Shown in pieces: positions 1 through 2,877 of a DNA stretch of 2,877 bases (positions within the stretch are counted from its first letter, which is position 1; every line of letters starts with the position of its first letter). Source of the stretch: Escherichia coli (GTDB taxonomy: Bacteria > Pseudomonadota > Gammaproteobacteria > Enterobacterales > Enterobacteriaceae). The notes beneath the pieces are model-generated. The model was not told the DNA's origin. It saw nothing but the letters and a program-made list of their open reading frames with translations, and searched no databases. Both the position numbers and the translations under genes were made by a program. The DNA is taken from NCBI RefSeq assembly GCF_003334785.1, contig NZ_QOWV01000054.1. One strand, given 5' to 3'.

Positions 1-1
1 G

Positions 2-391
2 TGGCTTGCGCAGTGCGGGCTGACGGTGGAGCAACTGGCCAGACAGGTGGAGCCGGAATACACACCGGCGCGAAAAGTTCATTTTTACCACTGCGACCAC
101 CGGGGCCTGCCGCTGGCGCTCATCAGCGAAGACGGCAATACGGCGTGGCGCGGGGAGTATGATGAATGGGGCAACCAGCTTAATGAGGAGAACCCGCATC
201 ACCTGCACCAGCCGTACCGTCTGCCAGGGCAGCAGCATGATGAGGAGTCGGGGCTGTACTATAACCGTCACCGGCACTACGATCCGTTGCAGGGGCGGTA
301 TATCACCCCGGACCCGATTGGGTTGAGAGGTGGATGGAATATGTATCAGTATCCGTTGAATCCCATACAAGTGATAGACCCAATGGGGTTA
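2..391 (+). other. Conserved Rhs core terminus (last YD repeat through DPxGL motif)
   Basis: GC-rich by eye. The translation ...[79 protein letters not shown] matches the conserved enterobacterial Rhs core end as I recall it. Confidence 0.85.
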
Positions 392-841
392 GATGCGATT
401 GAGAATATGACATCAGGTGGACTAATTTATGCCGTATCTGGTGTACCTGGATTGATTGCTGCAAACAGCATTACTAACAGTGCTTACCAGTTCGGTTATG
501 ATATGGATGCTATTGTTGGCGGAGCTCATAATGGGGCCGCCGATGCAATGAGACATTGTTACTTGATGTGTCGAATGACTAAGACATTTGGATCAACAAT
601 AGCTGACGTGATAGGTAAAAATCATGAGGCGGCAGGGGATAGACAAGGTCAGCCAGCTAAAGAAAGAATCATGGATCTTAAAAATAACACTGTCGGTATT
701 GCTTGTGGCGATTTTTCTGCCAAATGTAGCGATGCATGTATTGAAAAATATAACACTGGGCAACTCTTCGGGTTAGATGGTATAAAAGCAGATAATCCAA
801 TAAAAGCAAAGCAAGGGAGTTCAGATGCTTCAAATTATTAG
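2..841 (+). CDS. rhs: Rhs-family polymorphic toxin, 3' portion (5' end lies outside the window): end of conserved RHS/YD-repeat core followed by variable C-terminal toxin domain
   Basis: The reading frame is open from nt 2 (WLAQCGLTV...), so the GTG at 26 in the ORF track is not a real start. The translation contains the last YD repeat [16 protein letters not shown] (nt 278-325) and the core-terminating DPxGL motif as DPMGL (nt 377-391). Stop codon TAG at 839-841. Nucleotide composition drops from GC-rich to AT-rich around nt 330-360, the classic Rhs core/tip discontinuity. Confidence 0.9.
392..838 (+). other. Variable Rhs C-terminal tip (putative toxin domain, about 149 aa, family unassigned)
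   Basis: It lies immediately after DPMGL and is AT-rich, unlike the core. The sequence is [30 protein letters not shown]...[18 protein letters not shown]...KNHEAAG...[14 protein letters not shown]...; it has a His/Cys-rich segment and none of the nuclease, ADP-ribosyltransferase or HExxH motifs I can recognise by eye. Confidence 0.75.
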
Positions 842-844
842 AGG
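840..844 (+). promoter_or_regulatory. Shine-Dalgarno-like AGAGG for the downstream ORF, overlapping the toxin stop codon
   Basis: AGAGG at 840-844 sits 5 nt upstream of TTG at 850. The arrangement suggests translational coupling of the toxin and the downstream gene. Confidence 0.4.
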
Positions 845-849
845 CAAAC

Positions 850-1308
850 TTGTCATTTTTTTTAATTACCCTTTGTTTATTTGTTGTTTACCTTGGGTTT
901 GATAACAATTCAAATTCTGACATCGTATTTTATGGACATAAAACACCAAAGAGCGTTGAGATATATCTTTCTGAAAAAAATATTATTTATAAAATAATTA
1001 ATGACCAAAAAATTAGTAGAGGGAATGGTCATTTTATAAGTATAATGGTTAATAATTACAGGACGCACTGTGGAGTGGTTGATATAAATCTTAATTTTTT
1101 CAATGATATTCTTTATAGCGTGCGATTAAAAAACATTAGTAAACTGGAGAATATGGAGTTCTGCGCTACAAAACAACGGGTGTATTTTAGTGATAAAAAC
1201 AAGAAGGCTAGTTATAAAATAATTAATTATGGAGACTATTATGATGTTGATTATTATGATAACAATTTGAAAAATGAAGTTTTTGACTGGATTGGTAAAT
1301 GGTCATAA
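850..1308 (+). CDS. Hypothetical protein, candidate cognate immunity protein for the Rhs C-terminal toxin (152 aa if the TTG start is used)
   Basis: ORF 850-1308 lies directly downstream of the toxin tip on the same strand with an 8-nt gap. It is AT-rich like the tip. TTG at 850 is the first possible start in this frame after an upstream stop at 793-795; the first in-frame ATG is at 1045. The assignment is by position only; I recognise no domain in it. Confidence 0.55.
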   Translation: MSFFLITLCLFVVYLGFDNNSNSDIVFYGHKTPKSVEIYLSEKNIIYKIINDQKISRGNGHFISIMVNNYRTHCGVVDINLNFFNDILYSVRLKNISKLENMEFCATKQRVYFSDKNKKASYKIINYGDYYDVDYYDNNLKNEVFDWIGKWS

Positions 1309-1478
1309 TGAACAACACCAGAAAGAGAAAAATATAAAATACATACAGAAAGACATGAGAGCAAGGGACGGGGCAGGGCAAGATCATGAAAATTGTGATG
1401 TAAATCACGATTTTCATCTTTGCTTTAACGCCTACAGGTGATCAAAATTTAACCTTTGGAATAACTAAAAAGATAAAA

Positions 1479-1483
1479 AAGGA
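1479..1483 (+). promoter_or_regulatory. Shine-Dalgarno-like AAGGA upstream of the GTG start of the transposase pseudogene
   Basis: AAGGA at 1479-1483 with a 6-nt spacer to GTG at 1490. Confidence 0.35.
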
Positions 1484-1489
1484 CGCCAG

Positions 1490-2634
1490 GTGAGTATTCA
1501 AAGTTTGCTTGATTATATTTCAGTGACCCCTGATATACGACAACAAGGAAAGGTTAAACATAAATTATCTGCTATTTTGTTTCTCACCGTATGTGCAGTA
1601 ATTGCAGGTGCCGATGAGTGGCAGGAAATTGAAGATTTTGGACATGAAAGACTTGAATGGCTAAAGAAATATGGTGATTTTGATAATGGCATTCCGGTCG
1701 ATGACACCATTGCACGCGTTGTGAGTAACATTGACAGTTTGGCCTTTGAAAAGATGTTTATTGAATGGATGCAGGAGTGCCATGAAATCACTGATGGTGA
1801 AATTATAGCAATAGATGGAAAGACCATAAGAGGCTCCTTTGATAAGGGAAAAAGAAAAGGAGCAATCCATATGGTGAGTGCATTCTCGAACGAAAATGGT
1901 GTTGTACTGGGGCAGGTGAAAACGGAAGCCAAAAGTAATGAGATTACAGCCATTCCAGAGTTGCTTAACCTACTGTATTTAAAGAAAAATTTGATAACCA
2001 TTGATGCTATGGGCTGTCAGAAAGATATCGCTTCGAAGATCAAAGATAAAAAAGCAGATTATCTTCTGGCAGTAAAAGGCAATCAGGGGAAATTACATCA
2101 TGCATTCGAGGAAAAATTTCCTGTAAATGTGTTTTCTAATTATAAAGGCGATTCGTTTAGTACGCAGGAGATAAGTCATGGAAGAAAAGAAACACGTTTG
2201 CATATTGTCAGTAACGTAACGCCTGAACTTTTGTGATTTTGAATTCGAATGGAAGGGATTAAAAAAGCTTTGTGTAGCATTGTCATTCAGGCAGAAGAAA
2301 GAAGATAAATCAGCAGAAGGTGTAAGCATCCGATATTATATTTCATCAAAGGATATGGATGCTAAAGAATTTGCACATGCTATCAGAGCGCACTGGCTGA
2401 TCGAGCACAGTCTTCATTGGGTGTTAGATGTAAAAATGAATGAAGATGCCAGCCGGATAAGAAGAGGAAACGCAGCCTAAATAATATCTGGAATAAAGAA
2501 GATGGCACTGAATTTATTAAGAGATTGCAAAGACATTAAGGGTGAAGAGGAAAAGAAAGAAGGCTGCGTTAAACACAGGGAAAGATCATCAGAAGTTCAC
2601 TTTTTGTACTAAACAATTCGCATTTTATGTTTAA
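1490..2634 (+). pseudogene. ISAs1-family (Rhs-associated H-rpt-like) transposase, disrupted by two frameshifts and one in-frame stop
   Basis: Frame 2 (1490-2236) gives MSIQSLLDYISVTPDIRQQGKVKHKLSAILFLTVCAVIAGADEWQEIEDFGHE...AIDGKTIRGSFDKGKRKGAIH...NEITAIPELL...DAMGCQKDIA...YLLAVKGNQ...[19 protein letters not shown], then stop. Homology continues in frame 0 from about 2235 ([20 protein letters not shown]...YYISS...[29 protein letters not shown]), then an in-frame TAA at 2478-2480, then IISGIKKMALNLLRDCKDIKG, then a shift to frame 1 near 2540 (VKRKRKKAALNTG...) ending at TAA 2632-2634. Total span is about 381 codons against about 378 aa for intact family members as I recall. Confidence 0.85.
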
Positions 2635-2707
2635 AAATTGAGATATTCCTTATTACCTAAAGCTGTTTTTTATTGCTTACACATGATCAAATACTCCTTA
2701 CATAATT

Positions 2708-2713
2708 AAGGAG
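2708..2713 (+). promoter_or_regulatory. Shine-Dalgarno AAGGAG for the second transposase gene
   Basis: AAGGAG at 2708-2713 with a 6-nt spacer to ATG at 2720. Confidence 0.5.
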
Positions 2714-2719
2714 AACAAA

Positions 2720-2877
2720 ATGGAACTTAAAAAATTGATGGGACATATTTCTATTATCCCCGATTACAGACAAGCCTGGAAAATGGAACATAAGTTATCG
2801 GATATTCTACTGTTGACTATTTGTGCCGTTATTTCTGGTGCAGAAGGCTGGGAAGATATAGAGGATTTTGGGGAAAC
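2720..2877 (+). CDS. ISAs1-family transposase (H-repeat-associated protein, YhhI/YdcC-like), N-terminal 52 codons; 3' end lies outside the window
   Basis: ATG at 2720 with a strong RBS. The translation [52 protein letters not shown] closely matches the N-terminus of E. coli H-rpt proteins as I recall them. It is paralogous to, but clearly diverged from, the N-terminus of the pseudogene at 1490. Confidence 0.85.

Follow-up and report, generated by a model that had tools for sequence, protein, structure and literature searches.

A truncated ISEc26-type element interrupted by H-rpt at the 3' flank of the Escherichia coli rhsE locus

Introduction

The 3' flank of the RhsE locus of Escherichia coli carries two directly adjoining insertion sequences (ISs), which raises the question of how these elements came to lie next to each other and what part they had in the turnover of the toxin/immunity cassette upstream of them. 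The analysis described here concerns a stretch of 2,877 nucleotides from E. coli (NCBI RefSeq assembly GCF_003334785.1, contig NZ_QOWV01000054.1), referred to as the window. A sequence-only reading of this DNA had described two ISAs1-family elements in tandem, inserted serially into a hotspot. An association of H-rpt with Rhs loci, on which that reading drew, is indeed known from the literature, where this insertion sequence is counted among the components of Rhs elements (PMC3486870, PMC3032704). According to the genome paper of E. coli W, transposition of H-rpt has not been observed (PMC3032704), and a mobilome preprint reported no detectable circles from ISAs1.

For the comparison with other strains, 5426 complete genomes were surveyed, with counts based on BLAST coverage thresholds; a handful of genomes was read base by base.

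Gene content of the locus

The window covers the E. coli RhsE locus from the C-terminal tip of rhs through ydcD, yncO and yncI to the start of ydcC. It is 100% identical to strain NCTC9041 and differs from K-12 MG1655 at a single base. In the matching E. coli genomes (100%), the annotated gene order is rhsE-ydcD-yncO-yncI-ydcC-pptA, and the region is the known and already annotated 3' flank of the RhsE toxin locus. The following genes precede or overlap the first element:

1..841, plus strand: 3' end of rhsE, comprising the end of the Rhs core with the DPIGL motif (311-325) and then the C-terminal tip with DUF6973
825..1308, plus strand: ydcD, the ORF 3' of the tip and presumed immunity gene (NCBIfam YdcD_fam, 207 bits)
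1223..1408, minus strand: yncO, a small annotated ORF (RefSeq; also in the ORF list)

The rhsE part matches the NCBIfam models RHS_core and Rhs_assc_core as well as Pfam RHS and DUF6973; the gene is annotated in K-12 and is full-length in NCTC9041. In ydcD, the window has a run of eight T (856-863) versus seven in K-12, which shifts the first codons. The in-frame ORF runs from TTG 850, and the gene is annotated as frameshifted in NCTC9041. The reading frame of yncO starts inside the left end of the first element and runs out into the 3' end of ydcD. A scan of the window against Rfam returned no family at threshold. In other strains, IS1, IS3 or IS5 is found within this stretch.

Identity and extent of the two elements

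The remainder of the window is made up of the two elements, termed copy 1 and copy 2 in the order in which they follow ydcD:

1374..2575, plus strand: copy 1, an ISEc26-type ISAs1 element with the yncI pseudogene, 98.6% identical to ISEc26 of O157:H7
1374-1391, plus strand: left inverted repeat of copy 1, CAGGGCAAGATCATGAAA, with a GATC inside
1375..1426, plus strand: strong, terminator-like hairpin in the left end of copy 1, with its core palindrome at 1386-1417; the terminator scan also picked it up
1439..1446, plus strand: TGATCAAA block of copy 1 with a GATC inside, lying 66 nt inside the element and 51 nt ahead of GTG 1490
1490..2480, plus strand: broken transposase frame of copy 1, consisting of 1490-2236 (248 codons), a frameshift and a continuation to TAA 2478-2480
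2566..2575, plus strand: GCGTTAAACA, target of copy 2 and left copy of its duplication; the right copy is absent from the window locus
2576..2877, plus strand: the initial 302 bp of the H-rpt copy 2 (ydcC; ISEc5/ISEc1 type), the rest lying past the window
2576-2593, plus strand: left inverted repeat of copy 2, CAGGGAAAGATCATCAGA, agreeing with the right repeat at 15 of 18 positions
2708-2713 and 2720, plus strand: start signals of copy 2, AAGGAG and ATG, respectively; the ORF is confirmed

The prototype of the ISAs1 family is ISAs1 of Aeromonas, and family members in ISfinder span about 1.2-1.5 kb with one transposase ORF. Membership was judged by terminal inverted repeats of about 14-22 bp and a target-site duplication of about 8-10 bp. 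Both copies belong to this family by transposase model, size and terminal inverted repeats, and a target duplication of 10 bp was found for copy 2 in strain EC20017429 (see below). Against the NCBIfam model NF033564 for ISAs1 transposases, which has a curated cut-off of 70 bits, the two ORF pieces of copy 1 score 293.5 and 82.3 bits and the transposase of intact ISEc26 scores 415 bits. The 52 codons of copy 2 within the window reach 25.5 bits and thus stay under the cut-off; full-length ydcC, encoding an ISAs1 transposase of 378 amino acids, reaches 416 bits. With 61% nucleotide and 58% amino acid identity between them, the copies are two different ISAs1-family elements and represent distinct lineages rather than a recent duplication, as had been read from their sequences.

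Intact ISEc26 of O157:H7 is 1305 bp long and has both inverted repeats, which agree at 16 of 18 positions. Copy 1 lies at the same junction 3' of ydcD/yncO and retains about 1202-1204 of the 1305 bp; its right end is gone, together with the right inverted repeat. Its beginning had been placed at 1420, and has to be moved 46 nt farther upstream to 1374 because the left inverted repeat is located at 1374-1391. The ORF starts with GTG at 1490 and has the N-terminus (M/V)SIQSLLDYISVTPDIRQQG. Several lesions in comparison with the O157:H7 element bear out its assignment as a pseudogene: one additional nucleotide near 2228, a GAA codon turned into TAA (2478-2480), five nucleotides deleted near 2544 and the loss of the last ~98 bp. 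The hairpin at the left end has a folding energy of -22.6 kcal/mol (z -6.7), and none of 200 shuffled sequences was equally stable. In its outer stem, the left inverted repeat is paired with the TTGCTT region, TTGCTT itself forming the 3' arm.

Copy 1 is present in 2529 of the 5426 genomes, with a median of one place per genome. Its insertion point lies 65 nt 3' of ydcD, and the ydcD/ISEc26 junction is identical in every genome inspected. A synthetic query for the empty site found it in 0 of 5426 genomes, so that the target is without an uninserted reference; a search for a target duplication yielded only a 5-nt CGGGG on both sides of the intact element. The behaviour of copy 1 is that of a fixed, single-copy passenger travelling with the ydcD cassette and not that of an active IS.

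Copy 2 shows no essential difference from H-rpt (ISEc1/ISEc5; ydcC, yhhI and ybfD in K-12) with its CAGGG... terminal inverted repeats. It is 96-100% identical to ISEc5/ISEc1 H-rpt copies, including one beside rhsB. Full-length matches at independent sites (positions 1-1291) define a length of 1291 bp, with a median of five copies per genome. The right inverted repeat is located at 9848-9865 of the longer locus sequence L001, in which three inverted-repeat matches were found versus 0.01 expected by chance. The transposase gene ydcC is intact in this lineage.

A conserved block upstream of the transposase genes

The upstream regions of both transposase ORFs had been thought to share a motif TTGCTT...TGATCAAA at similar distances from the start codons. 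This holds for one part of the motif. TGATCAAA has two sites only in the window, 1439-1446 in copy 1 and 2684-2691 in copy 2, which are mutually aligned and positionally conserved; it is also conserved in ISEc26 and in all H-rpt copies examined except that of EC20017429, which reads TGTTCAAA. TTGCTT, in contrast, occurs five times in the window without positional homology, precedes TGATCAAA by 13 nt in copy 1 and by 5 nt in copy 2, and in copy 1 is a lineage-specific SNP, with TGGCTT in W2-5 and O157. The distances from the start of TGATCAAA to the start codons also differ, being 51 nt in copy 1 versus 36 nt in copy 2. TGATCAAA lies 66 nt inside the element end in copy 1 and 109 nt inside it in copy 2 and is not a part of the IS ends, a result that the sequence-only reading had itself named as speaking against its proposal.

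A sigma-70 promoter scan found three sites versus 5.6 expected, none of them before copy 1; the only candidate before ydcC is a weak TACACA-17-CATAAT promoter. There is therefore no support for TTGCTT...TGATCAAA acting as a promoter. Conservation across the family was not found either, as five ISAs1 elements from plasmids could not be aligned in this region of their left ends, and only recurrent GATC sites are common to them. Family members outside E. coli (ISAs12, ISKpn31 and unnamed copies carried by Salmonella and Enterobacter plasmids) encode transposases with 45-52% identity to YdcC, and their termini start with CAGGG. The subterminal non-coding regions of these non-E. coli elements cannot be aligned, and TGATCAAA is confined to the two E. 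coli lineages. Two of the non-E. coli lineages, like both E. coli elements, have a GATC in the left but not in the right inverted repeat. Together with the GATC near the transposase promoter, this could couple the activity of H-rpt to Dam methylation, by analogy with IS10.

Copy 2 is inserted within copy 1

The description of the elements as a tandem proved inexact. In EC20017429, copy 2 lies inside copy 1, flanked on both sides by a 10-bp duplication, GCGTTAAACA, and followed by the ~98-bp tail of copy 1. The order in this strain is GCGTTAAACA, H-rpt from CAGGGAAAG to CTTGCCCTG, GCGTTAAACA, the ISEc26 tail from CATGTTATATAG to the right repeat, and then CGGGGGGATT leading towards yafV. The uninterrupted ISEc26 contains GCGTTAAACA once. 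Of the flanking direct repeats that had been proposed as a check, there is thus a pair of 10 bp around the nested H-rpt, but none around the two elements as a unit. Judged from the sequence, the duplication is a clear historical footprint of H-rpt transposition. It is unlikely that the structure is an assembly artefact, since its right-hand junction is common to up to 284 genomes.

In the window, copy 1 breaks off precisely where copy 2 starts with its left inverted repeat, and in this locus pptA follows directly after copy 2 without the tail of copy 1. The lack of the last ~98 bp and of the right inverted repeat is thus explained by the interruption of copy 1 by H-rpt. Orphan tip/immunity cassettes, which had been considered beyond copy 2, are not present there: pptA begins ~90 bp past the right inverted repeat, and a search 3' of the ISs for an rhs orphan array (partial core, new tip and immunity ORF) found pptA in K-12 and NCTC9041. 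In W2-5 and EC20017429, yafV lies beyond copy 2.

Distribution and recombination signatures

The left junction between copy 1 and copy 2 is present in 2191 of the 5426 genomes, and an uninterrupted ISEc26 adjoins yafV in 310. The K-12-type arrangement at pptA was found in 1274 genomes and arrangements at yafV in 873, with the right-hand junction kept in at most 284. Among the matches listed, the ISEc26 tail with its 93-bp flank occurs only next to yafV, and this flank is common to the uninterrupted element and the nest.

O157:H7 and S171-1, which carry another Rhs tip, share the junction between the right repeat of H-rpt and pptA, and so do lineages that lack copy 1, among them strains with just one H-rpt. 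The H-rpt of S171-1, its left end too, shows 99.9% identity to that of K-12. Between K-12 and W2-5, there are three mismatches over ~1275 nt of the ydcD 3' end and copy 1, in contrast to 51 over the 1291 nt of H-rpt. The W2-5 H-rpt carries the nest allele for its first ~800-900 nt, followed by variants of the yafF-type resident, the degenerate right repeat of the latter among them. In JNEC-KY175, a different tip and immunity gene are followed by H-rpt, then the duplication and the fossil ISEc26 tail. In three independent recombinant configurations, the downstream boundary of Rhs cassette exchange lies in or at H-rpt.

In the K-12/window arrangement, the exchange point could not be located by SNP mapping because the K-12 allele corresponds to the pptA resident throughout; from position 39 on, it is distinct from the nest allele of EC20017429. 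A crossover would accordingly have taken place in the first 38 nt or between near-identical copies, or was erased by gene conversion. Strain AR_0081 has a 261-bp deletion reaching into pptA, with the breakpoint precisely at the right inverted repeat of its H-rpt, so that an IS-mediated deletion route retains some credit. The proposal that ISs mediated the turnover of toxin/immunity cassettes is borne out as to their involvement, but the mode resembles homologous recombination between H-rpt copies and not transposition.

Proposed history of the locus

As the H-rpt/pptA junction is found in strains with another Rhs tip, the simplest history consists of two single insertions followed by recombination between H-rpt copies. 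This history, a nested pair of which the left part was kept, is considered probable. An ISEc26-type element would have inserted once 3' of ydcD and travelled thereafter with the RhsE-type tip/ydcD cassette. A 1291-bp H-rpt of the ISEc1/ISEc5 type would then have transposed into ISEc26 ~98 bp from the right end, presumably at the yafV locus, duplicating GCGTTAAACA. Other H-rpt copies are long-standing residents of the vgrG-rhs islands, located at their distal borders beside pptA and yafV. The nested H-rpt may have undergone homologous recombination with such a resident, the exchange on the opposite side presumably involving the rhs core, and the cassette would in this way have reached pptA. The product would be the order ydcD, truncated copy 1, H-rpt and pptA, neither the copy 1 tail nor the second duplication copy having been carried along. 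Finally, copy 1 would have decayed further by frameshift, stop codon and small deletion, with ydcC staying intact.

The original proposal of independent side-by-side insertions into an Rhs 3' hotspot, in which the right end of copy 1 simply decayed, accords with the facts that two different ISAs1 elements do abut and that several H-rpt sites and other ISs surround Rhs loci. It is nevertheless very unlikely, as the end of copy 1 coincides exactly with the first base of the left inverted repeat of copy 2, one junction is common to 2191 genomes, and EC20017429 has the missing tail across copy 2 behind a perfect 10-bp duplication. Two serial events did occur, but both were single and old, without recurrent hits: a recurrent hotspot is unsupported because the ydcD/ISEc26 junction is uniform in the genomes inspected, no empty site was found among 5426 and the copy 1/copy 2 junction is so widely shared. 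There is some support for a softer form of the idea, since the two Rhs loci examined are bordered by no fewer than four distinct H-rpt insertion sites, and IS1, IS3 or IS5 lies within the stretch in other strains. Transposition of the pair as a composite unit, via the left inverted repeat of copy 1 and the right one of copy 2, is hardly credible. These outer repeats are 89% complementary over 18 nt, and the pair is found beside pptA as well as beside yafV. However, the flanks ...GGGACGGGG and GGCATTATT... are unrelated and lack a duplication, the loci stay near-identical to the left of copy 1, past its left repeat and through ydcD, and their right ends are not the same, W2-5 having the degenerate yafF-type repeat. 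Furthermore, the elements are non-identical, directly fused and free of cargo between them. ISs bracketing cargo between flanking duplications, as expected of a composite transposon, are thus not found here.

Alternatively, the nest could have formed in situ at pptA, with the tail and the DNA almost as far as pptA removed by an adjacent deletion of H-rpt (intramolecular transposition from its right repeat) and the left side later swapped in strains with other tips. The deletion in AR_0081, the missing duplication around the pair and the end-to-end uniformity of the K-12 copy 2 allele fit this course of events. It is weakened by the restriction of the ISEc26 tail and its flank to yafV among the matches listed and by the H-rpt/pptA junctions in lineages without copy 1, some of them with a single H-rpt, and the forms in O157, in S171-1 and at the yafV locus would still require recombination inside H-rpt. 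This alternative is therefore regarded as improbable, and the recombination of a nested with a resident H-rpt as the preferred history.

Relation to Rhs cassette exchange

Both elements and their association with Rhs are already known, and yncI and ydcC are annotated beside rhsE in a well-studied locus. Since the sequence-only reading largely restates such annotated features, it matters little by itself. Modest additions are the corrected anatomy of a nested pair with defined ends and a 10-bp duplication, and the transposition footprint of H-rpt, which contrasts with the statement that none has been observed (PMC3032704).

The arrangement resembles the C-terminal displacement and orphan-tip recombination described for Rhs proteins (Jackson et al. 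2009, PMC2935791) in that alternative tips occupy two vgrG-rhs loci, at both of which the cassette of DUF6973 tip and ydcD is found here. In a term search, that paper yielded no hit for H-rpt, H-repeat, insertion sequence or transposase. In contrast to the published model, a downstream exchange boundary can be proposed here, in or at H-rpt. It is tentatively suggested that H-rpt copies at the distal borders of vgrG-rhs islands may serve as portable downstream homology arms which, together with the conserved upstream rhs core, would allow double-crossover swaps of whole tip/immunity cassettes between Rhs loci and strains, a coupling to GATC/Dam being a lesser addition. If this is true, the association of Rhs with H-rpt would be functional and not accidental. 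If general, the exchange boundary at H-rpt would fill in the 3' half that the C-terminal displacement model still lacks for the shuffling of T6SS Rhs toxin/immunity pairs.

Two ISAs1-family elements at the rhsE locus

The window (2877 nt) has 100% matches in E. coli chromosomes, e.g., that of NCTC9041, and the sole difference to K-12 MG1655 is one extra T in a homopolymer. Gene order in K-12 is rhsE (pseudogene), ydcD, yncO, yncI (pseudogene), ydcC and pptA, with ydcC annotated as 'H repeat-associated putative transposase'; in NCTC9041 it is yncG-yncH-vgrG-rhs (full length)-ydcD-yncO-ISAs1 pseudogene-ydcC-pptA. The rhs 3' end in the window encodes the end of the Rhs core together with a DUF6973 tip, and ydcD matches the YdcD family. 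A T8 run in ydcD (856-863) is T7 in K-12, with the first codons shifted, and NCTC9041, an exact match to the window, has ydcD annotated as 'frameshifted' next to a full-length rhs. The run could reflect a true slip in the homopolymer or a long-read homopolymer error, or ydcD could use an alternative start, a TTG at 850. The region is tolerant of repeated IS insertion, and several strains that are otherwise identical have the rhs-tip/ydcD/ISAs1 stretch broken up by elements of the IS1, IS3 and IS5 families. Past the second ISAs1 element, no orphan tips or cassettes, for which the sequence-only reading had proposed a search, are present at the K-12 and NCTC9041 loci.

Both N-termini quoted in that reading are present, starting with GTG at 1490 (copy 1, the yncI pseudogene element) and ATG at 2720 (copy 2, the H-rpt carrying ydcC). 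The two ORF pieces of copy 1 and full-length ydcC score well above the cut-off of the ISAs1 transposase model, and the 52 in-window codons of copy 2, taken alone, fall below it. Since the copies share 61% nucleotide identity and the intact transposases of their lineages 58% amino acid identity, they represent different lineages, as had been claimed. Copy 1 is 98.6% identical to an O157:H7 element annotated as ISEc26, and positions 1-1291 of copy 2 are 96-100% identical to E. coli copies annotated as ISEc5 or ISEc1, including one beside rhsB. H-rpt has a median of five copies per genome. That Rhs elements include H-rpt insertion sequences has been described (PMC3486870, PMC3032704), and RefSeq annotates both genes; as first put forward, the finding was already known, and the feature is real but ordinary.

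Element ends and nesting

Features of the two elements (window coordinates)
1223-1408, minus strand: yncO small protein gene, starting inside the left-end hairpin of copy 1 and running outward across the ydcD 3' end
1374-1391: CAGGGCAAGATCATGAAA, left end of copy 1
1375-1426: very stable hairpin at the left end of copy 1, with a T-rich run behind it
near 2228: copy 1 lesion, extra base
2478-2480: copy 1 lesion, GAA>TAA
near 2544: copy 1 lesion, 5-nt deletion
2566-2575: GCGTTAAACA, after which copy 1 stops (lesion), exactly at the start of copy 2
2576-2593: CAGGGCAAGATCATGAAA, left end of copy 2
about 990 nt beyond the window: CAGGGCAAGATCATGAAA inverted, right end of copy 2

The K-12 locus holds three occurrences of the 18-nt terminal sequence CAGGGCAAGATCATGAAA, where 0.01 would be expected by chance. 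Copy 1 lacks a right end, and its four lesions were called against the intact ISEc26 of O157:H7 (1305 bp, both repeats present). A search with the ISEc26 right end revealed genomes where no more than the last ~110 nt of the element adjoin yafV. In one of these, EC20017429, rhs and ydcD are followed by ~1204 bp from the start of ISEc26, GCGTTAAACA, H-rpt (1291 bp), GCGTTAAACA, the last ~98 bp of ISEc26 carrying the right repeat, a 93-bp flank and yafV. As GCGTTAAACA stands on both sides of H-rpt in this strain and only once at the insertion point in uninterrupted ISEc26, copy 2 has transposed into copy 1 in textbook fashion, duplicating a 10-bp target. The supposed tandem is therefore a nest, and the PGAP pseudo-CDS of NCTC9041 that crosses the junction into the H-rpt left end (1490-2634; 9490-10634 in its own locus, L017) is an annotation artefact.

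In four ISAs1 lineages (ISEc26, H-rpt, a Salmonella plasmid copy and ISAs12), the left inverted repeat reads GATC at positions 9-12, for which the right repeat has GAGC or GATT (window 1382-1385 and 2584-2587; K-12 locus L001 9848-9865; O157:H7 locus L002 6288-6305; further ISAs1 elements L011 276-293 and 1514-1531, L012 82-110 and 1494-1522). More GATC sites lie just upstream of their transposase genes. By analogy, this pattern may reflect a Dam-dependent asymmetry like that of IS10. An ISAs1-family element on the E. hormaechei plasmid pRHBSTW-00040_3 has its 39-nt left end duplicated, 113 nt apart (L010 91-129, 204-242).

Shared upstream motif and left-end hairpin

Of the motif TTGCTT...TGATCAAA proposed to be shared upstream of both genes, only the second half holds. 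TGATCAAA occurs in the window only at 1439-1446 and 2684-2691; the two sites can be aligned with each other, and the motif is kept in ISEc26 and the H-rpt copies examined, with the sole exception of the EC20017429 copy, which has TGTTCAAA instead. Lying 66 nt (copy 1) and 109 nt (copy 2) inside the element ends, TGATCAAA is no part of them. TTGCTT occurs five times, with unlike spacing (13 nt in copy 1 vs 5 nt in copy 2), and its copy 1 occurrence is a lineage SNP, since W2-5 and O157 have TGGCTT. There it forms the 3' arm of the terminator-like hairpin, paired with the left repeat (predicted dG -22.6 kcal/mol, z -6.7). A perfect-palindrome version is conserved in O157 ISEc26, and copy 2 is without this hairpin. 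The predicted structure could terminate ydcD read-through into the IS. Because yncO starts within it, the yncO start is IS-derived sequence.

A promoter scan of the window showed no enrichment; ahead of ydcC it gave only a weak TACACA-17-CATAAT site, whose spacer contains GATC. More distant ISAs1 elements lack TGATCAAA, yet GATC sites lie upstream of the transposase gene there too. At a guess, the TGATCAAA block might serve as a promoter element sensitive to Dam or as a subterminal binding site.

Resident H-rpt copies and distribution

The junction of the copy 2 right repeat with the pptA flank is also found in strains with another Rhs tip and without copy 1 at pptA. In O157:H7, vgrG and rhs are followed by two small ORFs, an IS1 remnant, ydcC and pptA; S171-1 shares this layout, and the ydcC copies of S171-1 and K-12 are 99.9% identical, also counting the left end. 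AR_0081 carries a solitary H-rpt at this position between ansP and yddH (L004 9001-10291), in a region without yncG, yncH, vgrG or rhs. From these three strains it follows that an H-rpt is a resident of the island border adjoining pptA. In AR_0081, a 261-bp deletion into pptA ends exactly at the H-rpt right inverted repeat, resembling an adjacent deletion mediated by the IS. Another H-rpt, whose right repeat is degenerate, is resident 24 bp away from yafV, and the yafF remnant of K-12 is what survives of it.

Two O157:H7 variants were also observed. At pptA in Z1832, the ydcC pseudogene contains six extra tandem AGCAGAAC octamers (48 bp) ~950 nt into its H-rpt (L005 9001-10339), where other copies have one. 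At yafV in F6667 (L002 1428-6305), an orphan module of 5'-truncated rhs, ydcD and ISEc26 has an H-rpt on its left, whose right repeat directly abuts the rhs core, a composite-like arrangement.

Configurations among 5426 complete genomes
Copy 1 present: 2529 (median one place per genome)
Copy 1/copy 2 left junction: 2191
K-12 arrangement (copy 1, copy 2, pptA, yddH): 1274
Arrangement at yafV: 873
Uninterrupted ISEc26 adjoining yafV: 310
Right-hand junction of the nest kept: 284, thus at most 284 of the yafV-locus genomes

An empty site (ydcD flank without ISEc26) was found in none of the 5426. By these counts, both insertions look like single old events, inherited and moved, rather than the repeated hits of the serial-insertion hotspot that had been suggested.

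Origin of the arrangement and cassette exchange

The window's left junction is that of the nest, its right junction that of the H-rpt resident at pptA. Homologous recombination of the nested H-rpt with this resident would be the simplest route. K-12 and W2-5, which carry the cassette at different loci, show 3 mismatches in ~1275 positions over the ydcD 3' end and copy 1; their H-rpt copies differ at 51 of 1291. The first ~800-900 nt of the W2-5 H-rpt are identical to the EC20017429 nest allele; beyond them, the W2-5 copy has variants in common with yafF, the degenerate right repeat among them. In JNEC-KY175, a different tip and immunity gene precede H-rpt, the duplication and the ISEc26 tail, the latter two being a fossil of the displaced ydcD cassette. 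This divergence, the mosaic and the fossil support recombination within H-rpt copies. In the K-12/window type, copy 2 equals the resident allele along its whole length, which leaves no mappable switch point; the crossover may date from when the H-rpt copies were still near-identical. Alternatively, though less probably, the nest may have formed in situ at pptA, followed by an H-rpt-mediated adjacent deletion, for which AR_0081 provides a precedent; among the hits sampled, the ISEc26 tail adjoins yafV only.

The earlier reading is partly confirmed in what it observed and partly supported in its interpretation; its proposal that the ISs may mediate cassette turnover would narrow to recombination between H-rpt copies, as in W2-5 and JNEC-KY175. 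H-rpt transposition has never been observed according to the E. coli W genome paper (PMC3032704), and a term search of the C-terminal displacement paper (PMC2935791) turned up neither H-rpt nor insertion sequences. Added here are the nested anatomy, with a footprint of H-rpt transposition, and evidence, from the handful of genomes read in detail, for H-rpt copies as downstream homology in moves of tip/immunity cassettes between the pptA and yafV Rhs loci. It is conceivable, if still rather doubtful, that H-rpt serves functionally as a recombination anchor when Rhs cassettes are exchanged.
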